DNA of 27,882 nt from an uncultured Owenweeksia sp. (GTDB taxonomy: Bacteria; Bacteroidota; Bacteroidia; Flavobacteriales; Schleiferiaceae): contig CAYXHJ010000001.1 in NCBI GenBank assembly GCA_964464855.1, positions 1-27,882 on the forward strand. The letters are read 5' to 3'. Below the pieces are notes generated by a model. It saw only the letters and a program-made list of their open reading frames with translations, was not told the origin of the DNA and made no database searches. A program made the translations under genes and the position numbers. Shown here piece by piece: positions 1 to 15,138 of the stretch. Position 1 is the first letter of the stretch; each line of letters opens with the position of its first letter.

Positions 1-1482
1 GCCCAGCATCACATACGCCTGGCGGTGTTCGGACCAGTTGACGCGCTGGGCCCAGAAGCGGGCGATTCCCAGCAGTACTTCCAAGCCAAATTCAGCCAAG
101 TAGGTGCGGTCCAAGGTGTAGCGCTCGTAGGTGTAAATGCCGTAGGCAATGGCGCCGTTGCGGTGGATTTCCTCAAAGGTGATCTCCCATTCGTTGTGGC
201 ACTCCTCCCCGTTCATGGTGACCATGGGGTAGAGGGCGGCTCCGTTTTTGAAGCCGAGTTTGGCCGCGTTTTCGATGGCCTTGTCCAGGTGTTTGTACCG
301 GTATACCAGCAAATTACGGGCCACTTTGGGGTCCGCGCTGGCGAGGTAGAAAGGAAGGCAGTAGGCCTCGGTGTCCCAGTAGGTCGAGCCGCCGTACTTC
401 TCGCCGGTGAAGCCCTTGGGTCCAATATTCAAGCGTTCGTCGACGCCCGTAAACGTTTGCAGTAGATGAAAAATATTGAACCGGATGCCCTGCTGCGCGG
501 CCTCATCTCCGTCGATCGCAATGTCTGCCGTGTCCCACTTGGCGCGCCACGCTGCGCGGTGTTCCGCCAACAGGGCGACCCAACCCGCCGCCGCCGCCTC
601 GCGTGCCCGCTCGGCCGCGCGCGCCGGAACTTCCTCCGCCGGAGCGTTGAAGGACGAAACCACGCCGGCGTACTTGGTCAACACCAGCGTTTGGCCGGCA
701 TTGACGGGGCCCTCCCAGGCGTTTTCAGCCCAGCCGGTGCGCGCTTCCGCGCTCCATGCACCCGTGGTGGCATCCAGCTCGCCTCCATCCGCCCATTCCC
801 ACGTGCAGTACTGTGCGGCGGCCACGCGAAAGGCGGTTTTCTTGGTTTCGGAAACCACCCAGCCCTCGCGGTTGGCGGCCTGTGCGTCTTGCGCGTTCCA
901 AAACGTCTCTTCCCAGTTGGCGTCGTGGTTGGTGACGTTGAAATCCAATGCGGCGGCCAGACGGAGGTTGGCGGCACGGTCCGTTCGAACGGTGTAACGA
1001 ACGGCGCCAATTTCGTCCCGAACGATGCTGAGGATGCGTGTAGCGTCTACGGAAACCGCGGTGCCGTCGGGCATTTGGGCCGTAAACGTTCGGGTCAAAA
1101 CGCCGTGTTCCAAGTCCAGTTCGCGGTAAAAGGATTCTACCGCACAGGTGTTCAAATCCAGTTCGACGCCGTTGATGTGCGCGCGAATGGCGATCCAATT
1201 CACGCTGTTCAGGACCTTGGCGAAGTACTCCGGATAGCCGTTTTTCCACCAGCCCACCTTGGTCTTGTCTGGGTAGTACACGCCGGCGATGTAGGAGCCG
1301 GGCAGGGTGCTGCCCGTAAACGTTTCTTCGTGGTTGGCGCGTTGCCCCATGCGGCCGTTGCCCAAAGCAAACAAGCTTTCGGATTCGATGTGTCGGTCTG
1401 CATTCCACTGGTTTTCAACTAGTTTCCAGGGATGTATGGCCACATGAGAGGCGCGTTTGGTGCTGAGAACGGAGGAAGACAT
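1..1482 (-). CDS. GH65 family maltose phosphorylase-like glycoside phosphorylase (5' part; runs off the window at position 1)
   Basis: Missing from the ORF track because its stop lies outside the window. Translated by hand from ATG at 1482: MSSSVLSTKRASHVAIHPWKLVENQWNADRHIESESLFALGNGRMGQRANHEE...GSYIAGVYYPDKTKVGWWKNGYPEYFAKVLN...QQGIRFNIFHLLQT...RLNIGPKGFTGEKYGGSTYWDTEAY...GLEVLLGIARFWAQRV...YVMLG. These are hallmark motifs of Bacteroidota GH65 maltose phosphorylases, and the gene is adjacent to pgmB. Confidence 0.92.
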   Translation of the reverse strand, partial: MSSSVLSTKRASHVAIHPWKLVENQWNADRHIESESLFALGNGRMGQRANHEETFTGSTLPGSYIAGVYYPDKTKVGWWKNGYPEYFAKVLNSVNWIAIRAHINGVELDLNTCAVESFYRELDLEHGVLTRTFTAQMPDGTAVSVDATRILSIVRDEIGAVRYTVRTDRAANLRLAAALDFNVTNHDANWEETFWNAQDAQAANREGWVVSETKKTAFRVAAAQYCTWEWADGGELDATTGAWSAEARTGWAENAWEGPVNAGQTLVLTKYAGVVSSFNAPAEEVPARAAERAREAAAAGWVALLAEHRAAWRAKWDTADIAIDGDEAAQQGIRFNIFHLLQTFTGVDERLNIGPKGFTGEKYGGSTYWDTEAYCLPFYLASADPKVARNLLVYRYKHLDKAIENAAKLGFKNGAALYPMVTMNGEECHNEWEITFEEIHRNGAIAYGIYTYERYTLDRTYLAEFGLEVLLGIARFWAQRVNWSEHRQAYVMLG

Positions 1483-1498
1483 GCGCGTTTCGTTCGTT

Positions 1499-2278
1499 TT
1501 AGGAGGGGAGGTTGGTGTTGGGGGTTGCGGCGGAATCGGCGGCCGCGGCGCCATCAGCAGCGTGGTGAGTGGCAGCGGCGTCCTTGGCCTCAACGGGAGC
1601 CGCCGCGTTCGCCCGCGCCGCCGCGCGCGCTTCTACGTCTGCAACCAAGGCACGCGGATCTTGGCCTTGAAGGTCCGGGAGCACGCGGTGCGCATGGGGC
1701 AGGGCTTCCGGCGTGCCCAAGCCCAACGCAAGCATTCCGGCGCGGAGTGCCGCTTCGATTCCGGCAGCGGCGTCTTCCACCACCAGGCATTCGTGGGGGA
1801 GCAGGTTCAGTTTGCGCGCACCTTCCAAAAAGACCGTCGGGTCCGGTTTGCTGGCAGTGACGTCGTTGCCGTCCACCGTGGCGTCAAAAAAGCTCAAAAG
1901 TCCCACTTTGTCCAAGATGGGCAGCGCGTTTTTGCTGGCTGAACCCAAAGCAATGCGGTAGCCGGCTTCGCGCGCGCCACGCAGGAATTCGGCCGCACCG
2001 GGGAGGACGTCGGCCGTGGTCATGGAGGAAACGTCGTCCAAGTACCACGCGTTTTTGGTGGTCATCCAGCGTTCCATCTCCGGCTCGGGCAGGGTGAGCC
2101 CGCCCCAGGCGAGGATTTTTTCCAAGGAGGCCCTGCGGGAAACGCCTTTGAGTTGCTCGTTTTCGTCGTGCCCAAAGGCAATTCCCAACTCGCCGGCCAT
2201 GCGCTGCCACGCCAAAAAATGAAATTTAGCGGTATCGACCAAGACACCGTCCAGGTCGAAAAGAAGGCCGCGGATCAT
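1499..2278 (-). CDS. pgmB: Beta-phosphoglucomutase (HAD superfamily) with Ala-rich C-terminal tail
   Basis: HAD motif I FDLDGVLVDTAKFHFLAW, LKGVSR, SASKNA, SKPDP and VVEDAAAG. Sits next to a GH65 phosphorylase, which produces beta-glucose-1-phosphate. Confidence 0.93.
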   Translation of the reverse strand: MIRGLLFDLDGVLVDTAKFHFLAWQRMAGELGIAFGHDENEQLKGVSRRASLEKILAWGGLTLPEPEMERWMTTKNAWYLDDVSSMTTADVLPGAAEFLRGAREAGYRIALGSASKNALPILDKVGLLSFFDATVDGNDVTASKPDPTVFLEGARKLNLLPHECLVVEDAAAGIEAALRAGMLALGLGTPEALPHAHRVLPDLQGQDPRALVADVEARAAARANAAAPVEAKDAAATHHAADGAAAADSAATPNTNLPS

Positions 2279-3153
2279 GCGCTTGCGGGCTGCAGAATGT
2301 GCAACACGTCCAGGTGGTAGCGAATCAAATTGTTCACGGGCTTAGCTTGGGTTCTTCCGTACACCAGTCCGCGTTTGTTCACCTCTTCCACCAGCAATGC
2401 TTCAAACGTTTTGGCCACCGATCCCACAAAATTGACTTCAGCGGCACCGGTTCGGGCTTCCTCAAAGCACAGCACGTGGATGTCTAGAAACTTCGCAAAA
2501 CCGTCGCGTACGATGTTTTCGATGTACGGGTGGCTGGCGTGAGCACCGGCAAACCGACTGTACGAAGCCAAGTAAACGTTGGCGTGCGGCTTGTTGTACA
2601 CCGACGCAAAGATTTCCTCTTTGCTGGGGTGGTACGTTTCCACAAAGTCTGCGTACAGTTCAGCGGGCATCAATTTGTAGAGGTAGTCGGCCACCAAGCG
2701 CTTCCCAATGAAGCTGGCGGAACCTTCGTCGCCCAAGATGTAGGCCAGTGCAGGCACTTCTTCACGGATTGTACTGCCGTCAAAGTAGCACGAATTGCTG
2801 CCCGTGCCCAAGATGCACGAGATCTGGGGCTTGCCAGCGTACGTAGCGAAGGCGGAGGCATACAAATCGTGGTCTACGCGCACGGTGGCTTGCGTAAATA
2901 CGCGGGACAAGCCTTCCGCCACCACGGCATTGAGGGCGTCGCTGCTGCAGCCTGCGCCGTAGAACCAAACCTGAAGGACTTGCGACGCGTAGCCCATCAA
3001 CTCCGATTGAGCCCGGAGTTCGTGTTCGATGACGTCTGCGGAGTGAAAGAAGGGGTTGAAACCCATGAGGTTCCAACGGTTAATTTCCTCGCCTTGACCG
3101 TTGAGCAACACCCAGTCGGCCTTGGTGGAACCGCTCTCTACAATGAATACCAT
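2275..3153 (-). CDS. BadF/BadG/BcrA/BcrD-family ATPase, N-acetylglucosamine-kinase/glucokinase-like sugar kinase
   Basis: N-terminal IVESGSTKADW, GFNPFF, FYGAGC, ILGTGSNSC and ILGDEGS motifs of the ASKHA NagK-like family. Its stop overlaps the pgmB start by 4 bp (ATGA). Confidence 0.85.
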   Translation of the reverse strand: MVFIVESGSTKADWVLLNGQGEEINRWNLMGFNPFFHSADVIEHELRAQSELMGYASQVLQVWFYGAGCSSDALNAVVAEGLSRVFTQATVRVDHDLYASAFATYAGKPQISCILGTGSNSCYFDGSTIREEVPALAYILGDEGSASFIGKRLVADYLYKLMPAELYADFVETYHPSKEEIFASVYNKPHANVYLASYSRFAGAHASHPYIENIVRDGFAKFLDIHVLCFEEARTGAAEVNFVGSVAKTFEALLVEEVNKRGLVYGRTQAKPVNNLIRYHLDVLHILQPASA

Positions 3154-3162
3154 GGCCTCAAG

Positions 3163-4185
<1,023 letters not shown>

Positions 4186-5157
4186 TTAGATGGAAAGAAT
4201 CTTGGCCATGCGCAGGAGTTCCAAATCCAGCGGGGCTTTGTTGAAAATTGCTTGTTGAAAGAAGGTGTGGGTAATGCGACCGTCCACAACGCCCACCATC
4301 AAATCGGTCTTGCCGTTGAGCAAGGCCTCCACCGCTGCAACACCCAATTGACTGGCGTTCACACGGTCCAAACAACTGGGTGCGCCGCCGCGTTGAAGGT
4401 GGCCCAAAATGGTGACTTTGGTGTCCGCATCCGGGAAGCGCGCCCGGACGGCGTCCGCAATCGCGAAGGTGGACCCAATTTTATTTCCTTCCGCCACTAC
4501 AATGATGTTGGACGTTTTTTTGTTTTCCGCTCCGCGTTCCAAGGCCGTGATGACCTCCTCCAGGGTGGTGTTTTGCTCCGGCAAAATAACGGCCAAGGCG
4601 CCTGTGGCCAAGCCCGTGTGCAGTGCGATGAACCCAGCGTCGCGCCCCATGACCTCCACAAAAAAGAGTCGGTTGTGGGAATTGGCCGTGTCCCGAATCT
4701 TGTCGATGCATTCCATGACCGTGTTGCACGCGGTGTCGTAGCCAATGGTCAGGTCCGTGCCAAAGAGGTCGTTGTCTATGGTTCCTGGGATGCCTACCAC
4801 GGGAAGGGCGTGTTCTTCCCACAGCAAGTGTGCACCGGTGAAGGTTCCGTTTCCACCAATCACCACCAGGCCATCAATTCCCTGCGTACGCATTTGCGCC
4901 GCGGCCTCAGCCCGTCCTTCCGGCGTGCGGAAACGATCCGACCGCGCCGATTTCAACACGGTGCCGCCCATTTCCAGGATGTTTTTAACGCTCTTGGCGT
5001 TTAACTCCGTGGTTTCGCCGGCGATCAAACCGTCGTATCCGCGGTACACGCCCAACACGCGTTTGCCGTAAAAAACACCGGTCCGCACCACAGCGCGGAT
5101 GGCGGCGTTCATGCCAGGAGCGTCGCCCCCTGAGGTTAAAACTGCTAACGTTTTCAC
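4186..5157 (-). CDS. pfkA: ATP-dependent 6-phosphofructokinase
   Basis: GTG start. Motifs LTSGGDAPGMNAAIRAVVR, GGTVLKSAR, PGTIDND, EVMGRDAG and LGHLQRGG. Gly at both specificity positions indicates the ATP-dependent type. Confidence 0.96.
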   Translation of the reverse strand: MKTLAVLTSGGDAPGMNAAIRAVVRTGVFYGKRVLGVYRGYDGLIAGETTELNAKSVKNILEMGGTVLKSARSDRFRTPEGRAEAAAQMRTQGIDGLVVIGGNGTFTGAHLLWEEHALPVVGIPGTIDNDLFGTDLTIGYDTACNTVMECIDKIRDTANSHNRLFFVEVMGRDAGFIALHTGLATGALAVILPEQNTTLEEVITALERGAENKKTSNIIVVAEGNKIGSTFAIADAVRARFPDADTKVTILGHLQRGGAPSCLDRVNASQLGVAAVEALLNGKTDLMVGVVDGRITHTFFQQAIFNKAPLDLELLRMAKILSI

Positions 5158-5191
5158 GAGTGCAAAGATGCGTCTTTTTTAAGCGCGCAAC

Positions 5192-5199
5192 CAAAGATA
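5192..5199 (-). promoter_or_regulatory. Bacteroidota -7 promoter element TATCTTTG for the pfkA operon
   Basis: Plus-strand CAAAGATA is a perfect TAnnTTTG on the minus strand, about 35 bp upstream of the pfkA start. Confidence 0.7.
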
Positions 5200-5217
5200 G
5201 TGTATTTTTTACACTAT
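5197..5217. promoter_or_regulatory. Candidate NrtR-family operator 1 (ATAGTGTA-TTTTT-TACACTAT)
   Basis: Perfect 8-bp inverted repeat with 5-bp spacer. It contains the GT-N7-AC core described for NrtR-family sites and overlaps the pfkA -7 element. Confidence 0.8.
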
Positions 5218-5224
5218 ACAAGAT

Positions 5225-5241
5225 GGTGTATGCATTACACT
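5225..5241. promoter_or_regulatory. Candidate NrtR-family operator 2 (GGTGTA-TGCAT-TACACT)
   Basis: Second GTGTA-N5-TACAC copy 26 bp from the first, lying 8 bp upstream of the regulator's -7 element. Confidence 0.75.
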
Positions 5242-5249
5242 CCTTCGTT

Positions 5250-5257
5250 TATCTTTG
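5250..5257 (+). promoter_or_regulatory. Bacteroidota -7 promoter element TATCTTTG for the regulator-MFS transcript
   Basis: Perfect TAnnTTTG ending 7 bp before the ATG at 5265, implying a nearly leaderless mRNA. Confidence 0.7.
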
Positions 5258-5264
5258 TTAACCT

Positions 5265-5957
5265 ATGGTAAATCCAAACGTTTCCGTGGACTGCGTCGTA
5301 TTTGGTTTCGACGGCGACGGACTCAATGTATTGTTGATCGAACAGAAGGACGTAGGTCAGCGCATCCGCCTGGCTTTGCCGGGGGACTTGGTGCTGGACG
5401 AAGAGAGTTTGCACGAGGCCGCGCAGCGGGTATTGTGGGAATTAACCGGCCTGGCGGGCGTCTACCTGCACCAATGCGGGGCCTTTGGCGATCCCAACCG
5501 CGTTCGCGACGTGAAGGACTTGGCTTGGTTGCAGAGTTACCGCGAAAACCCGCAAGCGCGCGTCATCACGGTGGCCTATTTTGCACTTTTGAAGAGTGAG
5601 GACTTTAATCCGCACGCTTCCAGTTTTGCGGAACGCGTATTTTGGCAGCCCGTCTACCAGGTTCCGGAATTGGCATTTGACCACAACGCCATTTTCAATC
5701 AAGCGCTCAAAATCCTCCGAAAGGAGATGCGCCACCGCCAAGTAGGCCACGAACTGCTTCCGGAGAAATTCACCTTGAGCCAGTTGCAAACCCTGCACGA
5801 AGCCATTTTTGGTGAAGTCTTGGACAAGCGCAACTTCCGCAAGAAAATCATCAAAGAAAAGTGGGTTTTGCCCCTGGAAGAAAAGCAAAAAGGAGTGGTG
5901 CACAAGCCGGCCCGACTCTACGAAATCAACGCAAACACCCCGGTATTGGAGGAATAA
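5265..5957 (+). CDS. NrtR/AraR-family transcriptional regulator (degenerate Nudix domain plus C-terminal winged HTH)
   Basis: SVDCVVFGFD...LPGDLV..ESLHEAAQRVLWELTGL (Nudix fold), RVITVAYFAL, LAFDH, and the wHTH segment LLPEKFTLSQLQTLHEAIFGEVLDKRNFRKKI...HKPARLY. Confidence 0.9.
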   Translation: MVNPNVSVDCVVFGFDGDGLNVLLIEQKDVGQRIRLALPGDLVLDEESLHEAAQRVLWELTGLAGVYLHQCGAFGDPNRVRDVKDLAWLQSYRENPQARVITVAYFALLKSEDFNPHASSFAERVFWQPVYQVPELAFDHNAIFNQALKILRKEMRHRQVGHELLPEKFTLSQLQTLHEAIFGEVLDKRNFRKKIIKEKWVLPLEEKQKGVVHKPARLYEINANTPVLEE

Positions 5958-6074: not shown

Positions 6075-7418
6075 ATGGAACAAAAAAGACTTTCCTTTTG
6101 GCAAATCTGGAACATGAGTTTTGGATTCTTGGGCATTCAGTTTGGCTTTGCCCTGCAAGGCGGATTCATGTCCACCATCTTCCAAAACCTGGGCGCCAGC
6201 AAAGACGAATTGCCCGGATTGTGGATTGCCGCGCCGCTCACCGGTCTGCTGGTGCAGCCGATCATTGGTTATTTGTCCGACCGCACGTGGAGTCCGCGTT
6301 GGGGCCGACGTCGTCCGTACTTCTTGGTGGGCGCTGTCCTGAGCACCTTGGCGCTGTTTTTTGTACCCAGCTCGCCAACCCTTTGGATTGCAGCTGGTTT
6401 CCTCTGGGTTCTGGACGCGTCGATCAACATTTCCATGGAGCCGTTCCGTGCCTTGGTGGCCGATAAATTGCCCGACGAGCAACGTTCGTACGGTTTTGTG
6501 GCACAGACCTTGATCATTGGTATTGGTACGTGGATTGCCAGCAACTTGCCTTGGTTGGTGAGCACCCTGGGCGTCTCCACCACCGCACCGGAGGGTGAAA
6601 TACCCCCATCCGTGCACTGGGCTTTTGCCATTGGTGCTCTAGTTTTCATGGGCTCCATTTTGTGGACCGTCTTCACCACCACCGAAGAACCGCCCTCCGA
6701 TCTGGACGCTTTTCGGGCACACCGACGCGAAACGGCCGGCATTGCGGGCGCTCTGCGCGAGATCACCAGCAGCTTTCGGTACATGCCGTCCGTGATGTGG
6801 AAGTTGGGATTGGTGCAGTTTTTCAGTTGGTTTGCCTTCTTCACCATGTGGAACTTTGCATCGCCTGCTTTGGCCGAACACGTGTACGGCGCGGTGATGC
6901 CGTTGGAGGGCGCTGGGGACTACTTGGCGCAAAAAGCAGCCTACAATGAGGCCGCTGCCACCGTGGGCAGTTCCATGGGCATGTACGGCTTGAGTTCCAT
7001 GGCCTTTGCCTTTTTGCTCACGATTTACGCCGCCAAACGCGCTTTGAACCGACGGTTGGTGCACTTGCTTTCGTTGGCCGCCGGGGGTGCCGGTTTCTTG
7101 CTCATGGTGTACGTTACGGAGCAAAACGACGGCCTCCTGAATGTAGCTTTTGCTTTAATTGGAATTGCATGGGGCAGCATTTTGTCCATGCCGTACGCCA
7201 TTTTGTCCAGCGAAGTGGACCCGTCCAAGATGGGCATCACCATGGGTCTGTTCAACATGTTCATTGTGATTCCGCAAATTGTTGCTGCGTTGGGCGGAAT
7301 CAATTGGGCGTACAAGACGTTTTTGGGCGAGGCCACCATCAATACGATGGTTTTGGCGGGCATCAGCTTGCTCCTGGGCGCGTTGTCCTCCCTGGTACTG
7401 CCCGCCAAGAAGGGGTAG
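6075..7418 (+). CDS. MFS transporter, SLC45/GPH sucrose-maltose-like (probable maltose/maltooligosaccharide permease)
   Basis: LSFWQIWNMSFGFLGIQFGFALQ N-terminus, SDRTWS.RWGRRRPY loop, EPFRALVAD and GLFNMFIVIPQI, with about 12 hydrophobic segments. Typical of Bacteroidota maltose loci. Confidence 0.85.
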   Translation: MEQKRLSFWQIWNMSFGFLGIQFGFALQGGFMSTIFQNLGASKDELPGLWIAAPLTGLLVQPIIGYLSDRTWSPRWGRRRPYFLVGAVLSTLALFFVPSSPTLWIAAGFLWVLDASINISMEPFRALVADKLPDEQRSYGFVAQTLIIGIGTWIASNLPWLVSTLGVSTTAPEGEIPPSVHWAFAIGALVFMGSILWTVFTTTEEPPSDLDAFRAHRRETAGIAGALREITSSFRYMPSVMWKLGLVQFFSWFAFFTMWNFASPALAEHVYGAVMPLEGAGDYLAQKAAYNEAAATVGSSMGMYGLSSMAFAFLLTIYAAKRALNRRLVHLLSLAAGGAGFLLMVYVTEQNDGLLNVAFALIGIAWGSILSMPYAILSSEVDPSKMGITMGLFNMFIVIPQIVAALGGINWAYKTFLGEATINTMVLAGISLLLGALSSLVLPAKKG

Positions 7419-7441
7419 TTTGGAGATCGGTAAGGATCGGG

Positions 7442-7485
7442 AAAAAAAGGCACCCCGGGCGCGCAGCGCCCGGGGTGCCTTTTTT
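7442..7485. terminator. Bidirectional intrinsic terminator between the convergent MFS and GH13 genes
   Basis: A7-GGCACCCCGGGCGC-GCA-GCGCCCGGGGTGCC-T6, a perfect 14-bp stem with tracts on both sides. Confidence 0.9.
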
Positions 7486-7552: not shown

Positions 7553-9430
7553 TTACCGCTGAAATTCAAAGATTTCAGACGACCACGCTCCCGCCTCCCA
7601 ACGTTCGTTCAAGCGAACCGGGGTTCGGTCCAAAGCGCGAACCGCGTCCCGTTTTTTGTTGAGCAACTCGTCGAACCGCTCCATGGAAACCGATGCTGGT
7701 TGGTCGCTGGCGTTCACCACCGTTAAGATCAGTCGGTCTTGGGTGTACCGGGCTACTACGTACAAGCCGTTTTCCGGTGCAAACTGCATCATTTTTCCGT
7801 GGTGCAGTGCGGCTTGAGAACGTCGGTAATTGCCCAACTTTTGGACGAAGTCAAAGGCTTCCTGCTCCTGCGGCGTCCGACCGGCGGCGGTGAACGCATT
7901 GCGCGGATCGCCCGGCCAACCTCCGGGAACGTCTTCGCGCATGGTGCCGTGGTTTTCCGTGGACCTCATCAGTAACTCAGTGCCGTAGTACAGGCAGGGA
8001 ATGCCTCGGAGGGTGTAGAGAAGGGTCAGTCCCAGCTTGTATTTGCGAAAGTCCTCCCCGCACAGGCCAAAATACCGACCTTCGTCGTGGTTGTCCGCGA
8101 AGGTCACGAGTCGGTACGGATCCTGGTACAGGTAATCGCCGGCCAGGGATTGGTACAGTTTGCCCACCCCTTCGTTCCAGCCCGACGGCTTCGTCACGGT
8201 CTCTTTGATGGCGAAATACGTTTGAAAATCGGTGACGGAATTCAGTCGATTGTCCGACGGCCGAAGTGGAAATCCGCCCGCGAAATAGGCCTGGCTTTGG
8301 TGGTTGTGCACCCAGGTTTCGCCAAACAAGACCATGCGCGGGTAGTGCGTGCGCACCACCTTGTTGAGGCGGGCCATGAAGTTCTGGTTGGGATAGGTGT
8401 AGGTGTCGATTCGGAGGGCGTCGATACCCGCCTCTTCAATCCACCACAAGGTGTTTTGAATTAAGTAGTTGGCAGCGTCCTTGTTCTCCAAATTCCAGTC
8501 CGGCATGGCGTCGTCGAACCAGCCGCGTTCAAAGAAGTCCTTGTCTCTTTGGGAGGCGTACGGGTCAAACAGCGTGGTTTCCCGGTAGTTGGAGCGCGGG
8601 TATTTCTTTTTGGGGTTGAACCACGAGGAATCCGGTTGCGCTTGGTGGAGGTAGTGCATGTCGCCGGCGTGGTTGTAGACCACGTCCATCACGTGCTTCA
8701 TGCCGCGTGCGTGCAGGGCGTCGGAAAGGCGCAGCAAATCCGCGTGCGTCCCAAACCGGGGATCCACCAGGTAGTGGTCCGTGATGGCGTACCCGTGGTA
8801 GGAGGCGCGCACTTGGTTGTTGGCCAGCCACGGGTTGATCCAAACCGCCGTAACGCCCAAGGATTGAACGTAGTCCAAGTGTTTTTCAATTCCTACTAAA
8901 TCGCCGCCGTGGCGGTCGTAGGGAGCTTTTCGGTTCAAACTCATCTCCAATTGGCCGTCTATGCGGTCGTTCTTGAGGTCTCCGTTGGCAAAGCGGTCCG
9001 GCGTAATCAAGTACATATGGTCCGACGCGTCCAGCCCCATGAGCTGTCTTTTGGAGGCGTCGCGCGGTTTTAAGGCGTAGGTAAAACTCAGGTTGCCCGA
9101 CGGTGTTTGCACGGTAAAGGGCAGGTTTACGGGTTGTGCGTTGGGGTTCAACCACAGCACAATCTTTAGGTAGCCACCGTTTTTCAACACCGTGGACGAC
9201 AGCATCCGTACCTGAGTACTTTTGAAGGCAGGAATCACCGTGCACTTTCCTTGCAAAGTGGGTGATTTAACCAACAAACGCAGCGTATCGTTGGCCATAC
9301 CCACCCACCAATGGGGCGGATCTACCCGTTCGGGGGCGGTTGGGCCTTTGTCTGCCCAGGCAATACCCGCGGTGAGGAGCAGTAGAGCAACGATACTTAG
9401 GGTGCGGTTCACTAATTTTTTCCGGAACAT
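7553..9430 (-). CDS. GH13 neopullulanase/cyclomaltodextrinase (SusA-like), with signal peptide
   Basis: N-terminal RVDPPHWWVGM, YLITPDRFANGD, HGGDLVGI, YHGYAITD, region I MDVVYNH, region II ALRIDT, region III GETW, region IV FADNHD and LYYGTE. SPI-type signal with no lipobox Cys. Confidence 0.92.
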   Translation of the reverse strand: MFRKKLVNRTLSIVALLLLTAGIAWADKGPTAPERVDPPHWWVGMANDTLRLLVKSPTLQGKCTVIPAFKSTQVRMLSSTVLKNGGYLKIVLWLNPNAQPVNLPFTVQTPSGNLSFTYALKPRDASKRQLMGLDASDHMYLITPDRFANGDLKNDRIDGQLEMSLNRKAPYDRHGGDLVGIEKHLDYVQSLGVTAVWINPWLANNQVRASYHGYAITDHYLVDPRFGTHADLLRLSDALHARGMKHVMDVVYNHAGDMHYLHQAQPDSSWFNPKKKYPRSNYRETTLFDPYASQRDKDFFERGWFDDAMPDWNLENKDAANYLIQNTLWWIEEAGIDALRIDTYTYPNQNFMARLNKVVRTHYPRMVLFGETWVHNHQSQAYFAGGFPLRPSDNRLNSVTDFQTYFAIKETVTKPSGWNEGVGKLYQSLAGDYLYQDPYRLVTFADNHDEGRYFGLCGEDFRKYKLGLTLLYTLRGIPCLYYGTELLMRSTENHGTMREDVPGGWPGDPRNAFTAAGRTPQEQEAFDFVQKLGNYRRSQAALHHGKMMQFAPENGLYVVARYTQDRLILTVVNASDQPASVSMERFDELLNKKRDAVRALDRTPVRLNERWEAGAWSSEIFEFQR

Positions 9431-9452
9431 GAGCGGTATAGCGTTTGAGAAA

Positions 9453-9460: not shown

Positions 9461-9471
9461 GGGTATTGAGC

Positions 9472-9503
9472 AAAAAAAGGGGCCGCAAGCGGCCCCCCTT
9501 TTT
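9472..9503 (-). terminator. Intrinsic terminator after the small T9SS cargo gene
   Basis: Minus strand GGGGCCG-CTTG-CGGCCCC-T7, about 20 bp after the stop at 9524. Confidence 0.85.
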
Positions 9504-9523
9504 CCCTAACCCAGAGAAAAATA

Positions 9524-10294
9524 TTACTTGGTAACGAATACCTTTTCTACGGATTTAACGCCGTTGGCAACGATTTCAACCATGTACGTGCCCATTTCAA
9601 CAGCACCGCCGTTGTTGGCATCCAGGTTCCAAACGAAGCTGTGGTTACCGGCTTCCAAAGAACCAGCAGCCAAAGTCTTCACTTCCTGACCCAACAGGTT
9701 CAAAACGCGTACGGATACGTCGCCAGCCTTGCGGGTAGAGAAAGCTACTTTCGTGAAGTCAGCAGCAGGGTTTGGAGAAACGGTCAAGTCGTTCAAAGAC
9801 AACTCGCGGGTGCTCAAGTTCGGTGAAGAACCGTCGCACTGGAAGCAAGCGTCGTAGCAGAACAAAAACGCGGCATTGGCAGTAGGAATTACCAAGGTGC
9901 GGTTGATGTTGCCGGAGCCGTCGTCCACGCCGCAGTTATCCGTTACGATGGTGCTACCACTTCCACCTTCGTTGGTACCCCAATCGTTATTGACAAACTT
10001 GTACTGTTGGGTTGCGCCAGCTGAGGCAGCTGGGTAATCCACGGTGATGGACCAGATGTTGTTGCCTTCGTCCGTCATGGCAGATGCCGCGTTGCTGGGA
10101 GACCAATCGGCCATGGCCGTACCGCCGGTGGTAGCACCTTGGGTTTGGAAGTTACCGCCTACGCGCATGCCGTTAGCACCCAAGGAGTTGCCTGAAGCCA
10201 AGTAATCAGTAATGTCCACTTTGTAAGTCACAGAGACTTGAGCGAAAGCTGCGCTGGCAACCAGAGCAGCAGCAAGAGTAAGGGTTTTTTTCAT
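9524..10294 (-). CDS. Small secreted protein: signal peptide + single CBM20/48-like beta-sandwich module + T9SS type A C-terminal sorting domain
   Basis: Signal MKKTLTLAAALVASAAFAQ. Module VTYKVD..GMRVGGNF..W.P...MTDEGNNIWSITV...QYKFVNNDWG..E...C...NRTLVI..FCYDAC..C. CTD LTVSPNPA...VRVLNLLGQEV...GTYMVEI....KVFVTK. The CTD call is strong; the CBM identity is inferred from the motif pattern and context. Confidence 0.75.
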   Translation of the reverse strand: MKKTLTLAAALVASAAFAQVSVTYKVDITDYLASGNSLGANGMRVGGNFQTQGATTGGTAMADWSPSNAASAMTDEGNNIWSITVDYPAASAGATQQYKFVNNDWGTNEGGSGSTIVTDNCGVDDGSGNINRTLVIPTANAAFLFCYDACFQCDGSSPNLSTRELSLNDLTVSPNPAADFTKVAFSTRKAGDVSVRVLNLLGQEVKTLAAGSLEAGNHSFVWNLDANNGGAVEMGTYMVEIVANGVKSVEKVFVTK

Positions 10295-10329
10295 TTTGTT
10301 GTGTGTATTTAGGAAATTGGGTTGAGGGT

Positions 10330-10337
10330 CTAAGATA
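10330..10337 (-). promoter_or_regulatory. Possible internal -7 element (TATCTTAG) for the small T9SS gene
   Basis: One mismatch to TAnnTTTG in the 65-bp AT-rich gap after susD. Confidence 0.3.
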
Positions 10338-10359
10338 GAAAAGAATTAGCTGATGGAGC

Positions 10360-11970
10360 TCAATAATCGGGGTTCTGAATAAGGTTGGGATTGGCCAAGA
10401 CGTCAGAGGCAGGCAACGGGTAAAGGTCTAAGTGCAGACCCGTAGGCATGCCCTCTTTCACTCCACCCTTGAACGGCCAGATGTAGGCACTTCCGGCAAA
10501 TTTACCAAAGCGAATCAAGTCTTGACGACGGTGTCCTTCGTAGTGCAGTTCGCGCATGCGCTCGTCCAAGATCAGCTGCAAGTTCAGGGAACCAACGTGG
10601 TTGCTGCTGTTGCCGTACGCACGGGTGCGCAAATCGTTGAAGTACCCCAATGCCGTACCCAAATTGGTTCCGGTGCGCACAGCGCATTCGGCGTACATCA
10701 AGTAAATGTCTGCCAAGCGGAACATGGGGAAGTCCACGTCAACAAAAGTAACCGGCTCCACACCGGGATTTCCGTTCCGATCCACGTTGCGCCACTTGGT
10801 CAAAACATAACCTTGATACGGGTCTGCAAAATCGTCGATGGTGTCCGATTGACGCGTATAAGTGGTGTCAGCATTGGCGCCCGTTCCGGAGATTTCACGT
10901 CCGCGGATGGCAAAGGTGTACCGTGCGTCAAGGGTGTCGTTGAGCACATCGCTAAATGTTTTACGAGCGCGAAGGCCCTGCCAAGCGGAGGTAGTACCGT
11001 AGTCAATTCCGTAAATCTGGTTGTGCATGCTTCCGTGAACCAAGAAAGTTGTTCCGCCGTAATTGCGCGTACGGTTACCATCAAACGGTACGGAAAAGAT
11101 AAATTCTGGGCTCAAGTGGTTGTCTGCCAAGAACATGTGGCGGTAGTTGGGATCCAACGAGTAGCCTTCTTGAATGGCCTTTTCGCAGTCGGCCATGCAT
11201 TCTGCCCATTTGGGCGCACCGGTATACACCTCAGCGTTTAAGTACACCTTTGCGCGCAGGGCGTACAACGCTCCTTTTGAGGCGCGACCGTATTGGGTGT
11301 TCATACGGTTGGGCAAGTCGGCCTCTACAGCATTCAACTCGCTGAGCACGTATGCGAATAGGTCCGGGCGGGTGATGCGTTCCGGATAGTATACACCGGG
11401 GCGGTCCGACTCGTCCACAAATGGTACGTTTCCGTACAAATCCATGGCGTGGTAGTAGCTCAAGGCGCGCAGGAAGCGTGCTTCCGCTTTCATTTGCTTA
11501 ACAACAGCCTTTTGCTCCGCTGTGAACCCTTTGCTGTCCATCCACTCGTCCGTGGTGTACCGAATGAATTCGTTGGCCAACGCAATCTGGTAGTAGGTTC
11601 GGTAGTAAAAGCTGTTGACAAAAGAGCTGGTGGGGTCCCAGGTCATGGTGACCAATTCCGGTACGCCGGGATCGTTCCAGCCGCAAACTACCTCGTCCGT
11701 GGGCAACTCCTGCAAGTTCCACAGCAAGCGAATGTACTGGGAGAAGCCTTCGTCGATTCCGGAAATATCGGGCTGTCCCGCAGGGCCGTTGTTGCCCGAT
11801 ACGGCCAGACCTCCGTACAGCTTAGCCAATACGTTGTCGTAGTTTTCAAAGTCGGAGTACACCGCTTCGGCGTTCATTCCGTACTTGGGCGTGAGGTCCA
11901 AGTCTTTGGCGCACGAACCCACCAGCAAAGCGATGCCGGTCAAAAGGGAAAGATTTTTCACAATTTTCAT
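10360..11970 (-). CDS. susD: RagB/SusD-family outer-membrane glycan-binding lipoprotein
   Basis: Lipobox LLVGSC, ELPTDE, EARFLRALSYY..DLYGNVP, GRASKGA, FRLADIYLMYAE and ERMRELHYEGHRRQDLIRFG. It resembles starch-type SusD (GLAVSGNNGP.GQPDI.GIDEGF) and lies directly after susC. Confidence 0.95.
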   Translation of the reverse strand: MKIVKNLSLLTGIALLVGSCAKDLDLTPKYGMNAEAVYSDFENYDNVLAKLYGGLAVSGNNGPAGQPDISGIDEGFSQYIRLLWNLQELPTDEVVCGWNDPGVPELVTMTWDPTSSFVNSFYYRTYYQIALANEFIRYTTDEWMDSKGFTAEQKAVVKQMKAEARFLRALSYYHAMDLYGNVPFVDESDRPGVYYPERITRPDLFAYVLSELNAVEADLPNRMNTQYGRASKGALYALRAKVYLNAEVYTGAPKWAECMADCEKAIQEGYSLDPNYRHMFLADNHLSPEFIFSVPFDGNRTRNYGGTTFLVHGSMHNQIYGIDYGTTSAWQGLRARKTFSDVLNDTLDARYTFAIRGREISGTGANADTTYTRQSDTIDDFADPYQGYVLTKWRNVDRNGNPGVEPVTFVDVDFPMFRLADIYLMYAECAVRTGTNLGTALGYFNDLRTRAYGNSSNHVGSLNLQLILDERMRELHYEGHRRQDLIRFGKFAGSAYIWPFKGGVKEGMPTGLHLDLYPLPASDVLANPNLIQNPDY

Positions 11971-11982
11971 CGGTTCGGGAGA

Positions 11983-14900
11983 TTAAAGTTGAACGTTGAG
12001 TTGGATGTTGAACACGCGTGGGCGGGGATACAGGTTGTTGTCAATACCGCCTGCAATTTCAGGATCCAGGCCGCGGTACTTGGTGATTACCAAGGCGTTT
12101 TGCATGGAAATGTTCAAGCTGGAGGCAAAGCGATCTTTGTACAATTTGCCCAAATTGTAGGAGAGGTACAGGTTGTCCAAACGCAAGTAGGAAGCGTTTT
12201 CCAGGTAGTAGCTGGACAGGTACTGCGGAGTGCGGAATTGGCTCTCCAAGAAGTCGCTGGTCAGGTTGGTCAAATGGGGTTGTGAACCACCTACGGAGAA
12301 GTAGTTTCCGTTAACGGAACGAACGTTGTTGTACACGTATTGTCCCAATTCAGCACGGACGGTGGCGCCACCGCTCCAACGCTTGTGCGTGAAGTTCAAG
12401 CTCATGCCGAACAAAGTGCGGGGCTCTGGGGTCAGATTGCGGAAGACCTTCAAATCTGCTGTGTTGATGACGCCGTCGCCGTTCTGGTCTACGTAGGCTT
12501 CGATGTCGGAGATTTTGCCGTCGCCGTCTGCGTCAACAACACCGGAATAGCTGCCCAAATTGGGTGTGTTGCTCTTCTCAATGGGTCGACCGTTGGCATC
12601 AAATCGCTGTTCGAAGGCGAAGTAGGTGAACATCGGGTTGTTTAAGGCGTGGATTTGGATGGTGTTGCCTACACCACCGGAAATACCACCCACTTGAATA
12701 CCCGGGCTGGCGGTGTCGTCCACCAGGGCCAACTTCAGGATTTTGTTGCGGTTCAGTGCACCGTTGAGGCCAATTTCAAAAGAAGACGTCTCGTTGGAAA
12801 CCAATACGAAATTGACGTTGGCTTCAATACCGCGGTTGGACATTTGACCCACATTGGTCAAAACGCGGTTGGAGAAGTTGGTTCCGGCCGGGATGGGCAC
12901 CACGCCCAACAGATCGTAGGTGTATTTCTGGTAGACATCCACCGCGCCGTTGATGCGGTTTTTCAGGAAACCAAAATCCAATCCAATGTTGGTAGTGGCC
13001 GTCTTCTCCCACTGCAAGTTGTAGTCGTACGCATCCGGACGCAGCATGGTCACGAAATCGTTGCCAAACTGGTACGAAGCTGTGCTGGAGCTGGGCATGT
13101 AGTTGGGGATGTACGCATAATCGTTGAAGATGTCTTGCTGACCGGTAATGCCCCAGCCGGCGCGCCACTTCAAGGTGGAGAAGGTGGAATTTCCAGCCAA
13201 GAAGCTCTCTTTCAAAAGGTTGTGTGCAATAGCTGCCGAGGGGAAGAGGCCCCATCGGCTTTCTTTGGAGAAGCGTGAAGAACCGTCTTGACGCAACGTG
13301 AAGGTGAACAAGTACTTGTCGTAGGCGTTCACGTTCCAGCGTCCGTAGAAAGACATCAATGCGTTTTCGGTAAAGAAATCATTGGCAGCAGGAGCCACGA
13401 TGGTGTCGGATTCGTCGGCATTCAATACCGGAAAGGTGGGGCTGGTGGTGCTCCAATGTTGAAAGGAATAACCGCCGGTTAGGTCCGTTTTGAAGTTCGC
13501 AGACAGGTTGGTTTTGTAGTTGAAATACGCTTCCAACAGTCGGTTGGTGCGGGTAGAGGCGTACTGTCCTTTTTCCCCGCCTTGGAACCACTGTGCAGCT
13601 GCCGTTGCTGGCGTAAAGAAGTTGCCGTGTGTGTTGGAGTGTTCTCCACCCAAATTCAAGTAAAGATGAAGCTTGTCGTCTGCCGTTGCTTTGTAATCAA
13701 ACAGTACGTTGCCCAACAAGCGCGTGTTGTGGCCAACGTCCGTGCGCTGTTCGATCAATCCCAAGGGGTTTTTGGGAGACAATCCGTTGGGTTCGTTGTT
13801 CCGAGTCCACTCGAAGAATCCGCCTAAAAAGGAGGTATCTCCGCTGTATACCGGACGCGTGGGGTCAAATGTGACGGCTGTTCCGATGGCACCGGTATTT
13901 GAGTAATTCTGTGTGGAATTGATCAACTTTCCAGAAATGTTGGCCTTGAGTTTGCCTTTAATCAATTCCGGTGAAGCATTCAAACTAGCGCTGTAGCGAG
14001 CCAGTTCCGAACGGCGCAAAACGCCGGTTTCGTGGTAGCGGCCCAAGCTTAAACGGTACGGCAAGTTTTTAATTCCGCCCGAAAAAGCAATATTCACGTC
14101 TTGCACCATACCGGTTTGGTAGATGACGTCTTGCCAGTTGGTGCGTGTGGCGCTGTCCGTTGGGATGATGGAGTCGAAGGTGCTTGCACCGTTGCGGGCC
14201 ACTTTGGTCCAACCTGGAGCCGTTGCCAATCGTGCAATTTGCGCCTTGGTACCGTAGGTGTTTACGGCATTGGCAAACTCGTCAGCGGTCAATACATTGA
14301 CCTGATTGCGGTTGTTGCGCACCGAATAAACCACATTTAAATCTGCATTAAACGCTTTGCCGGCTGCACCTTTCTTGGTGGTCACCAAGATGACACCATT
14401 CGCCGCGCGCGAACCGTAAATGGCCGCTGCGGAGGCGTCCTTCAAAATCGTGAAGCTTTCAATATCCGCTGGATTGATCAACCCCAAGCCGTCGGCGGGG
14501 AGACCGTCGATGACCACCAAAGGATCGTTGCTCGCATTGAGCGAAGAACCGCCGCGAATGCGGATTCTACTGCCTGCGCCCGGTTGGCCGCTGTTGGAGG
14601 TGATGCGAACGCCCGGGGTCTTACCCACAATGAGTTGTTCCGGTGTGGAAAATGCACCGCGTTGGAAGGTGCGGGATTTCACGCTGACCAACGAACCCGT
14701 CAAGTCTTTGGTGTTGGATTGACCGTATCCGATGACTACTACATCGTCCAATACCCGGACGTCTTCCGCAAGGGTGAAGTTGAGGGTGTACTCTTTACCC
14801 GCAACAACCGTTCCCGTCTTGCTGGAGCTTTTGTACCCCATACCGCTGACCAGCAACTTATACGTGCCGGCAGGTACGCTCAATTGGTACACGCCGTTCG

Positions 14901-15072
14901 CGTTGGTGACAACGGCATAGGATTTGCCTTCAACTTTTACGCTAACGCCCGGTAACGTTTCGCCTTTGTCGGACGAAACGGTGCCGCGAATGGTTCCGTT
15001 TTGTGCTGCTGCGGATGCGCTGAGTCCTAGGGACAATGCAGCGGCAGCCAGCCAGTGTAGGGGTTTCATCAT
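11983..15072 (-). CDS. susC: SusC/RagA-family TonB-dependent transporter
   Basis: Signal peptide, carboxypeptidase-regulatory-like N-domain, VVVIGYG, plug motifs IRIRGGSSL..NDPLVVIDG and LKDASAAAIYGSRAANGVILVTTKKG, DGSSRF, LQWEKT, ENASYLRLDN, and C-terminal YPRPRVFNIQLNVQL. Start may be 15072 or 15069. Confidence 0.96.
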   Translation of the reverse strand: MMKPLHWLAAAALSLGLSASAAAQNGTIRGTVSSDKGETLPGVSVKVEGKSYAVVTNANGVYQLSVPAGTYKLLVSGMGYKSSSKTGTVVAGKEYTLNFTLAEDVRVLDDVVVIGYGQSNTKDLTGSLVSVKSRTFQRGAFSTPEQLIVGKTPGVRITSNSGQPGAGSRIRIRGGSSLNASNDPLVVIDGLPADGLGLINPADIESFTILKDASAAAIYGSRAANGVILVTTKKGAAGKAFNADLNVVYSVRNNRNQVNVLTADEFANAVNTYGTKAQIARLATAPGWTKVARNGASTFDSIIPTDSATRTNWQDVIYQTGMVQDVNIAFSGGIKNLPYRLSLGRYHETGVLRRSELARYSASLNASPELIKGKLKANISGKLINSTQNYSNTGAIGTAVTFDPTRPVYSGDTSFLGGFFEWTRNNEPNGLSPKNPLGLIEQRTDVGHNTRLLGNVLFDYKATADDKLHLYLNLGGEHSNTHGNFFTPATAAAQWFQGGEKGQYASTRTNRLLEAYFNYKTNLSANFKTDLTGGYSFQHWSTTSPTFPVLNADESDTIVAPAANDFFTENALMSFYGRWNVNAYDKYLFTFTLRQDGSSRFSKESRWGLFPSAAIAHNLLKESFLAGNSTFSTLKWRAGWGITGQQDIFNDYAYIPNYMPSSSTASYQFGNDFVTMLRPDAYDYNLQWEKTATTNIGLDFGFLKNRINGAVDVYQKYTYDLLGVVPIPAGTNFSNRVLTNVGQMSNRGIEANVNFVLVSNETSSFEIGLNGALNRNKILKLALVDDTASPGIQVGGISGGVGNTIQIHALNNPMFTYFAFEQRFDANGRPIEKSNTPNLGSYSGVVDADGDGKISDIEAYVDQNGDGVINTADLKVFRNLTPEPRTLFGMSLNFTHKRWSGGATVRAELGQYVYNNVRSVNGNYFSVGGSQPHLTNLTSDFLESQFRTPQYLSSYYLENASYLRLDNLYLSYNLGKLYKDRFASSLNISMQNALVITKYRGLDPEIAGGIDNNLYPRPRVFNIQLNVQL

Positions 15073-15106
15073 GCGAATATTTTTGTGTTGCCGTGAAAAG
15101 GTGGCA

Positions 15107-15114
15107 CCAAAGTA
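15107..15114 (-). promoter_or_regulatory. Probable -7 element (TACTTTGG) of the susC promoter
   Basis: One mismatch to TAnnTTTG, about 35 bp upstream of the susC ATG. Confidence 0.45.
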
Positions 15115-15121
15115 GGCAATA

Positions 15122-15138
15122 AGTGTATAAAATACAAT
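15122..15138. promoter_or_regulatory. Candidate NrtR-family operator 3 (AGTGTA-TAAAA-TACAAT) at the susC promoter
   Basis: Same TGTA-N5-TACA core as the sites at 5197 and 5225, 7 bp upstream of the putative -7 element. Confidence 0.65.

Follow-up and report, generated by a model that had tools for sequence, protein, structure and literature searches.

The window analysed here comprises 27,882 nucleotides of a contig from an uncultured Owenweeksia sp., the genome of which is 86.6% complete, and its genes were identified by Pfam and NCBIfam profile searches. On the minus strand, a unit headed by the ATP-dependent 6-phosphofructokinase gene pfkA (positions 4186 to 5157; TIGR02482, 396 bits) continues with the type I glyceraldehyde-3-phosphate dehydrogenase (GAPDH) gene gap (3163 to 4155, the true ATG being at 4155; TIGR01534, 441 bits), a sugar kinase gene of the ASKHA/BadF/GlcNAc-kinase family (2275 to 3153), the beta-phosphoglucomutase gene pgmB (1499 to 2278; TIGR01990, 216.5 bits against a cut-off of 189) and, as the last gene, a GH65 maltose-phosphorylase-like gene (1 to 1482; Pfam Glyco_hydro_65N and 65m, E 1e-58; NF010380, 641 bits). 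The ATG of the latter is at position 1482, 16 nt past the pgmB stop codon, and its C-terminal part lies off the contig end. The spacers between GH65, pgmB, kinase, gap and pfkA are 16, -4, 9 and 30 nt, respectively, and no convincing internal terminator was found when the unit was scanned. The tight minus-strand unit described in an earlier note on this DNA is therefore real. The PDB homologues of the kinase (e.g., 1zxo and 8oqk, E ~1e-45) are Bacteroidetes GlcNAc/MurNAc kinases and BT/PG proteins, and the Pfam match to BcrAD_BadFG is weak; a glucokinase role is predicted solely from the gene context.

The genes for an NrtR-family, AraR-like regulator (5265 to 5957) and an MFS/GPH-type sugar permease (6075 to 7418; PF07690, TIGR01301), the latter predicted to be a maltose/maltodextrin importer, are located on the plus strand, divergent from the pfkA unit, as had been reported. 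Neither a -7 box nor a terminator was found in the 117-nt gap between these two genes, and the permease is probably co-transcribed with the regulator; the permease orthologue in the relative G010 has an operator of its own. A bidirectional intrinsic terminator (7443 to 7485), which has a stem of 20 bp and T-runs in either orientation, lies between the permease gene and the GH13 gene that follows.

The starch-uptake genes, all on the minus strand, encode a SusC-like TonB-dependent transporter (11983 to 15072; TIGR04056, 667 bits), a SusD-like starch-binding lipoprotein (10360 to 11970; PF07980; NF033071 for starch SusD, 376 bits), an X25-like starch-binding module that is secreted and carries a T9SS C-terminal domain (9524 to 10294; PF22058, PF18962, TIGR04183) and a SusA-like GH13 cyclomaltodextrinase/neopullulanase-like enzyme (7553 to 9430; Pfam Alpha-amylase and Cyc-maltodext_N/C). 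Adjacent susC and susD genes together with alpha-glucan CAZymes and binding modules (the TIGR04056, NF033071, PF22058 and GH13 matches) identify a Sus-like alpha-glucan PUL. Its content resembles that of the SusR-controlled Sus of Bacteroides thetaiotaomicron (SusC, SusD, a surface starch binder and GH13), and SusD fits the starch-SusD model. However, the SusE/F position is occupied here by the T9SS-secreted X25 module, no SusR-type membrane sensor is encoded at the locus, and a cytoplasmic repressor is predicted instead. The earlier note had grouped susC-susD-CBM-GH13 as converging on the regulator and permease genes. This order was confirmed, but the four genes do not clearly form one transcript, because an intrinsic terminator (9472 to 9496; hairpin 9496-9479, GGGGCCGCTTGCGGCCCC plus TTTTTTT in the minus-strand reading) lies between the X25 and GH13 genes. 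The region upstream of the GH13 gene contains no operator, and this gene may be outside the susC transcript; its orthologue in G017 does have an operator. In four freshwater/outdoor metatranscriptome runs we observed scattered near-identical fragments of the kinase, X25 and susC genes, for which DNA carry-over is possible; the depth was higher for X25 than for GH13, the fragments being too sparse for operon definition.

In databases the regulator is named "jgi: 8-oxo-dGTP diphosphatase", "NUDIX hydrolase" or "MutT", and these annotations would suggest an active Nudix hydrolase (8-oxo-dGTPase/MutT) without a regulatory role. The N-terminal domain indeed has the Nudix fold (PF00293, E 6e-8; PF19368 was also matched), but its Nudix box reads G40-x5-E46 ... 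R55-V-L-W-E-L-T-G-L, compared with the signature GX5EX7REUXEEXGU. The presence of RVLWEL instead of REUXEE means that two catalytic Glu residues are lost, and, judged from its sequence, the domain is most likely an enzymatically dead sensor. The C-terminal domain is an NrtR winged helix (PF21906, E 1.1e-23, 83.5 bits against a cut-off of 27). Moreover, the best structural match is itself a regulator, AraR of B. thetaiotaomicron (BT0354; 5BS6, 5DDG and 5DEQ; PMC4666351), which has the same two-domain fold, 32-34% identity and a likewise degenerate Nudix box. The AF2 model (pLDDT 84) matched 5BS6 in Foldseek with TM 0.77-0.80, as well as 3GZ5, and the sequence matched 5BS6 with E 2e-35. Since a cognate palindrome also co-occurs with the regulator gene, as described below, a purely enzymatic function appears extremely improbable.

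The recognition helix DKRNFRK is identical in the two proteins. In the 5DDG complex, AraR residues K179, R180, N181 and K184 read GTGT in the GTGT-N7-ACAC operator (PMC4666351), and the helix including these residues was invariant in 22 aligned orthologues of the regulator; the operator geometry is also alike. Two of the three sugar-contacting residues are kept, as R79 and H140 align with AraR R86 and H131 and are both invariant in the orthologues, whereas AraR R34 is replaced by Q27, and a conserved 15-residue insertion, VRDVKDLAWLQSYRE, follows R79. The wing differs as well (HK here, KR in AraR). AraR places a cytoplasmic sugar pathway and SusC/D-type PULs under one control, which is also predicted here, but its targets are arabinose genes, whereas those predicted here are alpha-glucan/maltose genes, PFK and GAPDH. 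The regulator gene showed no AraR- or XylR-type linkage to ara or xyl genes; it is linked instead to pfkA-gap-kinase-pgmB-GH65 here, as it also is at about 59 of 105 regulator loci included in the tree. This implies that it is not an AraR orthologue. XylR (BT0791) and other Bacteroidetes pentose NrtR-like regulators belong to the same sugar-responsive NrtR branch in the same phylum (PMC2330246, PMC3878776). They share the divergent regulator/operon layout, but the regulons predicted for them concern xylose and the pentose-phosphate pathway, and a hexose/glycolysis regulon appears in neither PMC2330246 nor PMC3878776. Several NrtR paralogues in other genomes also carry DKRNFRK, so that in multi-paralogue genomes a site is not assignable to one protein. 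Within the genus, the paralogue nrtR2 (contig C81, after a GH3 gene) was rejected as the binder, its helix being DKANFRK and the insertion being absent; around nrtR2 in G006 no PWM site was found within 16 kb.

The pattern TGTA-N5-TACA, which had been noticed at the pfkA/regulator and susC promoters, occurs exactly three times in the window (at 5201, 5227 and 15124) versus 0.15 expected by chance, and none of 100 shuffles reached three. The operators are 21-bp palindromes with the core AGTGT-N7-ACACT. Operator 1 (ATAGTGTATTTTTTACACTAT, 5197 to 5217) has perfect 8-nt arms and the top PWM score of the genome (30.5). It overlaps the pfkA -7 box (TATCTTTG, 5192 to 5199, minus strand), which is of the Bacteroidota TAnnTTTG type and invariant in the genus alignment, and it fills the pfkA -33/-7 spacer; the operator was invariant in seven genus loci, and equivalent sites were present in about 40 loci of several orders. 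Operator 2 (5223 to 5243, core GTGTATGCATTACAC) is weaker (PWM 16.0) and lies within the promoter spacer of the regulator gene itself; the -7 box of this promoter (TATCTTTG, 5250 to 5257, plus strand) is invariant in the genus. Operator 2 is partly kept in the genus (GTGTC/GTGTA-N5-TACAC) and missing from L027. Operator 3 (TAAGTGTATAAAATACAATAT, 15120 to 15140), in the susC promoter spacer, has the second best score in the genome (24.9), and both its footprint and the -7-like box of susC (TACTTTGG, 15107 to 15114, minus strand) are invariant in five genus members. With TACAA, the susC site is not a full match to the consensus. Immediately upstream lies a conserved GTTAA-N7-TTAAC palindrome (15156 to 15172), which may serve a second factor (e.g., an activator) or represent the -33/UP region.

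Scanning the whole genome with the PWM, as the earlier note had proposed, ranked the pfkA/regulator, susC and a secreted GH13/CBM48 gene as the top three; GTGT-N7-ACAC occurs only 16 times in the 1.78 Mb genome. At four promoters, those of pfkA, the regulator, susC and the distant T9SS-secreted GH13/CBM48 gene (contig C69), the operator is situated between the -33 and -7 elements. In addition, a conserved operator precedes a second GAPDH gene, gap2 (contig C250), and another covers the -33 element of a candidate small RNA of ~75 nt (contig C103), which matched no Rfam family and had BLAST matches confined to the genus. In the genus footprints at the susC, gap2, pfkA and small-RNA promoters the half-sites are invariant, while the flanks or the spacer are variable. 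Intragenic matches at C2:3769 and in C149 were treated as chance. No sites were found at pgi, fba or other glycolytic genes in this 87%-complete genome. In proposing control of the whole route from glucan import to PFK and GAPDH, the earlier note thus went slightly too far; the GH13 gene at 7553-9430 also lies behind a terminator.

The position of the operators within the -33/-7 spacer suggests repression, and the characterised NrtR-family members, AraR included, are all repressors released by a ligand (PMC2330246, PMC4666351). The gap2 operator, however, is located ~60 nt upstream of the gap2 -7 box, which is not the classic occlusion position. Together with the sites found in some relatives before pckA and a CitMHS-type transporter, and with the insertion and the R34-to-Q change that alter the pocket, this could indicate an activator or dual regulator that recruits RNA polymerase at gap2-type distal sites and, like Cra or CggR, senses flux by responding to a glycolytic intermediate, not to the substrate. 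In view of the four spacer-located operators and the behaviour of the family, we consider such a mode of action rather unlikely.

Divergent regulator and pfkA genes with an operator between them were found in about 20 of the 28 relatives' loci, and many of 80 loci drawn from several orders show the same pairing. It spans at least four orders, namely Flavobacteriales, Cytophagales, Chitinophagales and Sphingobacteriales. The genome of G019, in which the regulator gene lies apart from pfkA-gap, has a single site, and this one is upstream of pfkA-gap. The susC orthologues of G020, G017, G023, L013, L022, L024 and L054 are likewise preceded by sites, and those of GH13/CBM48 and gap2 were seen again in G006, G008, G010, G013, G017 and G024. 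Hence the motif is conserved at pfkA/regulator and, in the genus footprint as well as in more distant genomes, at susC. Of the 17 exact sites in five relatives, 13-14 lie in front of pfkA, gap2, susC, GH13, GH31, GlgE-like or X25 genes; weak GH13 matches in distant loci were left out of the evidence as unreliable. Four relatives with a pfkA gene but lacking any NrtR homologue served as a negative control and contained no operator. Counted per genome, the exact pattern was no more frequent than the reversed-pattern control in five relatives, whereas the counts of AGTGT-N7-ACACT exceeded it in G008, G021 and G024. Because the exact-pattern counts are near the control, our argument is built on site placement and conservation.

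These data also bear on a narrower explanation, according to which control by the regulator is limited to its own gene and the divergent pfkA operon, the other sites are chance occurrences in AT-rich promoters or are bound by another factor, and the PUL is induced by its own regulator (SusR-like, HTCS or other) elsewhere. The off-consensus susC site, the adjoining palindrome and the near-control counts agree with it, and the incompleteness of the genome leaves room for a second regulator outside the assembly. Yet the susC operator is invariant in five genus members, independent sites stand before susC orthologues in more distant genomes, and the GH13/CBM48 and gap2 sites recur in relatives. 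Furthermore, no LacI, SusR or HTCS-like gene was found in the window by Pfam/NCBIfam, in agreement with the earlier note, and no Y_Y_Y match indicative of HTCS was above the cut-off in the genome. The sole LacI-family gene (contig C13) heads an unrelated TonB-receptor-MFS-GH100-like-kinase locus, which is accessory and missing from five genus relatives, and it was rejected as the alpha-glucan regulator. We regard control of only the pfkA operon and the regulator gene as quite improbable.

Taken together, the regulator at 5265-5957 is probably an AraR-like NrtR-family repressor of the starch PUL and of pfkA/gap, for which we infer the binding, the repression and the effector, whereas the gene identities, the site positions and their conservation, and the co-occurrence of sites and regulator were observed directly. 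The motif conservation, the genome scan, the operator-free controls and the BtAraR-identical helix, all sequence-derived, favour the combined PUL and glycolysis regulator envisaged earlier. The protein would bind the 21-bp palindromes as a dimer and most likely block four promoters by occupying the -33/-7 spacer, namely those of pfkA-gap-kinase-pgmB-GH65, its own gene (and probably the permease gene along with it), susC-susD-X25 and the distant GH13/CBM48 enzyme. Binding of a cytoplasmic sugar in the Nudix pocket would then make it leave the DNA, as arabinose does with AraR; our best guess for this effector is glucose or maltose, the alternative being a hexose phosphate. Its release would jointly turn on glucan capture, maltose import, phosphorolysis, hexose activation, PFK and GAPDH.

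CggR of Bacillus subtilis and HexR of Pseudomonas and Shewanella are likewise gap-adjacent repressors tying glycolytic genes to sugar supply, but the analogy is one of role alone. They belong to unrelated families (SorC/DeoR-type and RpiR/SIS-type), respond to FBP and KDPG and control no outer-membrane glycan-import locus; the domain search with our regulator returned only NUDIX and NrtR_WHD, and no SorC/DeoR- or RpiR/SIS-type architecture. A bolder interpretation, which we offer tentatively and with some doubt, is that hexose catabolism in the non-Bacteroidales Bacteroidota is governed by this insertion-bearing NrtR subfamily, which would be its long-missing master regulator, a switch comparable to Cra, CggR or HexR whose repurposed Nudix pocket senses a hexose or hexose phosphate. 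Under its control would come glucan capture by PULs, PFK, two GAPDHs and the small RNA and, in some lineages, gluconeogenic pckA and dicarboxylate transport.

A full-text search of the literature revealed NrtR regulons for NAD, arabinose and xylose only, and, as far as we could find, a starch and glycolysis NrtR regulon has not been described. Little is known about the control of central carbon metabolism and polysaccharide loci in Bacteroidota outside the gut genera, and here one repressor/operator pair is predicted to join outer-membrane starch uptake to phosphofructokinase and GAPDH. Thousands of homologues are now annotated as DNA-repair or Nudix enzymes. If our reading is true, this widespread mis-annotation would be corrected, and the reach of the NrtR family would grow from NAD and pentoses to the control of hexoses and glycolysis. 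Regulons could then also be predicted in environmental metagenomes from a defined operator, and the genetic tools for Flavobacteriia and Sphingobacteriia would gain a compact switch that responds to sugar.

The window, 27,882 bases long, starts at the beginning of a 30.9-kb contig, which belongs to a genome (G000) of 1.78 Mb in 272 contigs (86.6% complete, 54% GC). By protein searches it falls within the Schleiferiaceae, order Flavobacteriales. The earlier note proposed that one NrtR-type regulator governs both a starch utilization locus and the pfkA-gap unit, and profile searches bore out all the genes it had named. On the minus strand, pfkA (4186-5157), gap (3163-4155, with its true ATG at 4155), a BadF/GlcNAc-kinase-family sugar kinase gene (2275-3153), the beta-phosphoglucomutase gene pgmB (1499-2278) and a GH65 maltose-phosphorylase-like gene (1482 to the contig end) form one tight unit with spacers of 30, 9, -4 and 16 nt, in that order, and a terminator search inside it revealed no credible one. 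The nearest solved relatives of the kinase are Bacteroidetes GlcNAc/MurNAc kinases (E about 1e-45). The regulator gene, encoding a 230-aa protein with NUDIX and NrtR_WHD domains (5265-5957), and an MFS/GPH permease gene (6075-7418) lie on the plus strand, divergent from pfkA, and a strong bidirectional terminator (7443-7485) separates the permease from the genes that converge on this pair: susC, susD, whose product matches the starch-SusD model, the gene of a T9SS-secreted X25-like starch-binding module with a T9SS sorting domain in the SusE/F position (9524-10294), and a SusA-like GH13 gene. For this susC-susD-CBM-GH13 side the gene identities stood, but a single transcript is in doubt, as the minus strand carries a canonical intrinsic terminator (9472-9496; hairpin 9496-9479 followed by a T-run) 3' of the X25 gene, between it and GH13. 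The GH13 gene (7553-9430), for its part without an operator, would thus be transcribed either by read-through or independently.

Freshwater metatranscriptomes contain fragments of the locus, and these contigs show no more than the presence of parts of it in RNA libraries. In four metatranscriptome runs the contig depth over the X25 gene was far higher than over the downstream GH13, which is weak evidence.

The pattern TGTA-N5-TACA, which had been noticed at the pfkA/regulator and susC promoters, occurs three times in the window (5201, 5227 and 15124) against 0.15 expected, and none of 100 shuffles gave three. Operator 1 at the pfkA promoter (ATAGTGTATTTTTTACACTAT, 5197-5217) has perfect 8-nt arms, operator 2 at the regulator promoter (GTGTATGCATTACAC, 5226-5240) is weaker, and operator 3 (TAAGTGTATAAAATACAATAT, 15120-15140) belongs to the susC promoter. 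Each of the three predicted operators lies in the spacer between the -33 region and a Bacteroidota-type -7 box, which reads TATCTTTG for pfkA (5192-5199, minus strand), TATCTTTG for the regulator (5250-5257, plus strand) and TACTTTGG for susC (15107-15114, minus strand). In footprint alignments across the genus, with five or six genomes each, operator 1 was invariant and operator 2 partly conserved; the susC site claimed from the single sequence was likewise invariant in five genus members, together with its -7 box. A further palindrome, GTTAA-N7-TTAAC (15156-15172), abuts the susC operator upstream and is kept in five genus members; a second transcription factor may bind there, or the palindrome may serve as a promoter element. 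GTTAAC is also found at 5258-5263, between the -7 box of the regulator and its ATG.

Among solved structures, AraR, the arabinose repressor of B. thetaiotaomicron, is closest to the regulator (sequence E 2e-35), and the AlphaFold model of the regulator (pLDDT 84) superposes on it with a TM of 0.77-0.80. In the AraR-DNA complex, K179, R180, N181 and K184 of the recognition helix read the GTGT of a GTGT-N7-ACAC operator (PMC4666351). The recognition helix of the regulator, DKRNFRK, is identical to that of AraR and invariant in 22 orthologues. Two of the three sugar-contacting residues of AraR align with invariant residues of the regulator, R79 and H140; the third, R34, aligns with Q27. After R79 the regulator has a conserved insertion of 15 residues. 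Its Nudix box is degenerate, with RVLWEL where REUXEE is expected. The protein is therefore a sensor, and the names in the source annotations, "8-oxo-dGTP diphosphatase", NUDIX hydrolase and MutT, do not fit it.

Orthologues of the regulator (49-98% identity) occur within the family, in 21 of the 24 genomes sampled, and also in other families of its order; the proteins of Schleiferia thermophila and Thermaurantimonas aggregans are 65-66% identical to it. The expected motif upstream of pfkA in relatives was indeed found: at about 20 of 28 loci (T)TAGTGTA-N5-TACACTA(A) lies between the regulator gene and the divergent pfkA-gap, and at several of these susC with a second site comes after the regulator. 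A scan of one genome per species added 80 loci; among these, members of Schleiferiaceae, Cryomorphaceae, Crocinitomicaceae, Cytophagales (Marivirga sericea DSM 4125), Chitinophagales, Saprospirales and Sphingobacteriaceae (Pedobacter, Mucilaginibacter) again show the regulator gene and pfkA as a divergent pair, accompanied by gap, kinase, pgmB and GH65 genes in combinations that differ among loci. Culturable carriers of the pair are Marivirga sericea DSM 4125, Pedobacter spp. and Schleiferia thermophila. Where the exact pattern is missing, the loci have variants in which AGTGT-N7-ACACT is retained. In one relative (G019) the regulator gene lies away from pfkA, yet the sole site in the genome is upstream of pfkA-gap. 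Four related genomes that possess pfkA and have no detectable NrtR homologue served as the negative control; GTGT-N7-ACAC was upstream of pfkA in none of them, and each held 0-1 copies of the pattern genome-wide. In some relatives, per-genome counts of the exact pattern were not above those of a reversed-pattern control. When 105 regulators were placed in a maximum-likelihood tree, those linked to pfkA or a kinase gene grouped together far more than under shuffled labels, with none of 500 shuffles scoring as low.

The exact GTGTA-N5-TACAC was located in five relatives, where 13-14 of 17 copies are upstream of pfkA/regulator, gap2 (a second GAPDH gene), susC, GH13 genes, GH31, a GlgE-like GH13 or an X25 protein gene. 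Five more relatives have sites upstream of GH13/CBM48, MFS, gap2, a glycogen-phosphorylase-like gene, a CBM20/CBM48 protein gene, pckA and a CitMHS-type transporter gene. AGTGT-N7-ACACT was seen upstream of pckA, a CitMHS/Na-sulfate-symporter-type transporter gene (two genomes) and a glycogen-phosphorylase-like gene (loci L168 in genome G024, L157 and L162 in G021 and L167 in G008). These sequences hint at a regulon, of this regulator or of a paralogue, that in some lineages takes in gluconeogenesis and organic-acid uptake. In Pedobacter and Mucilaginibacter (loci L114, L117-L119, L121, L126 and L132) an NrtR-like gene lacking the insertion forms a divergent pair with a pfkA-kinase-gap operon; a locus can hold as many as three AGTGTGTA-N5-TACACTA sites, and another kinase gene comes after the regulator. 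Since several paralogues elsewhere have the same recognition helix, the assignment of sites to proteins is ambiguous in multi-paralogue genomes.

A weight matrix made from the orthologous sites of relatives was run over the G000 genome, and its best three matches were the pfkA/regulator site, the susC site, both named in the earlier note, and a site on contig C69. Immediately downstream of the latter come a -7-like box and the start codon (ATG) of the gene for a 933-aa T9SS-secreted GH13 with CBM48. Even the relaxed core GTGT-N7-ACAC has only 16 copies in 1.78 Mb. One lies at gap2, which encodes a 488-aa PRK08289-type GAPDH paralogue (contig C250, locus L036, 520-1986): the site (2075-2095), a conserved GTGTG-N5-TACAC about 60 nt upstream of the -7 box TACCTTTG, forms a conserved island in the genus alignment, in which the surrounding intergenic region is scrambled, and gap2 orthologues in G013, G017 and G024 have consensus sites upstream. 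An exact AGTGT-N7-ACACT (TTAGTGTACGGTGCACACTTTG) overlaps the -33 element TTTG of a candidate small-RNA promoter between a flippase gene and ileS (contig C103, locus L034, 1117-1239), with the -7 box TATATTTG at 1150-1157. The candidate transcript of about 75 nt ends near 1239 in a strong hairpin with a U-run (fold -31.3 kcal/mol, z -3.45). In six genus genomes AGTGT and ACACT of this promoter are invariant and the seven central bases vary; no Rfam family matched the RNA, and its BLAST matches were confined to this genus.

As had been stated, no LacI, SusR or HTCS regulator gene was recognized in the window by the profile searches, and no HTCS-type match above cut-off was obtained in the 86.6% complete genome. 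The sole LacI-family gene of G000 was rejected as the regulator of the starch locus: it belongs to an unrelated accessory locus (contig C13, locus L150, 1196-8076) that five genus relatives lack, and which it heads, divergent from a TonB-receptor-MFS-GH100-like-kinase operon. Its intergenic region holds ATTGTGTCCCATTAACACTTG at 2297, with the NrtR-like GTGT-N7-ACAC geometry. The second NrtR-family gene (contig C81, locus L037, 3825-4562, minus strand), right after a GH3 beta-glucosidase gene, encodes a 44% identical protein without the 15-residue insertion and with the helix DKANFRK, in which the intercalating Arg is replaced. No weight-matrix matches were found around it. Its product probably acts as the regulator for another sugar, with another operator.

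We propose that the regulator is a ligand-released repressor, as predicted from these sequences. Without sugar, a dimer would sit in the promoter spacers and block the uptake genes, the permease, maltose phosphorolysis, hexose activation, PFK and GAPDH; with sugar present, cytoplasmic sugar would enter the Nudix pocket and rotate the winged helices off the DNA, as in AraR. By analogy with AraR and XylR we favour free glucose or maltose as the effector; a hexose phosphate is a possible one. The sites that relatives have at pckA and transporter genes would agree with a wider role in sensing flux.

The regulons listed in the foundational literature on the NrtR family are confined to NAD, PRPP, ADP-ribosylation, arabinose, xylose and pentose-phosphate (PMC2330246, PMC3878776, PMC4666351), and a full-text literature search for a pfkA, gap or alpha-glucan regulon of this family found none. 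The role resembles that of CggR and HexR, but those belong to other protein families, so the relation is one of analogy and not of membership. By its predicted pfkA, gap and alpha-glucan targets, the regulator would be a functional variant within the known NrtR/AraR family. This type of regulator is widespread across Bacteroidota, currently mis-annotated and open to direct test.
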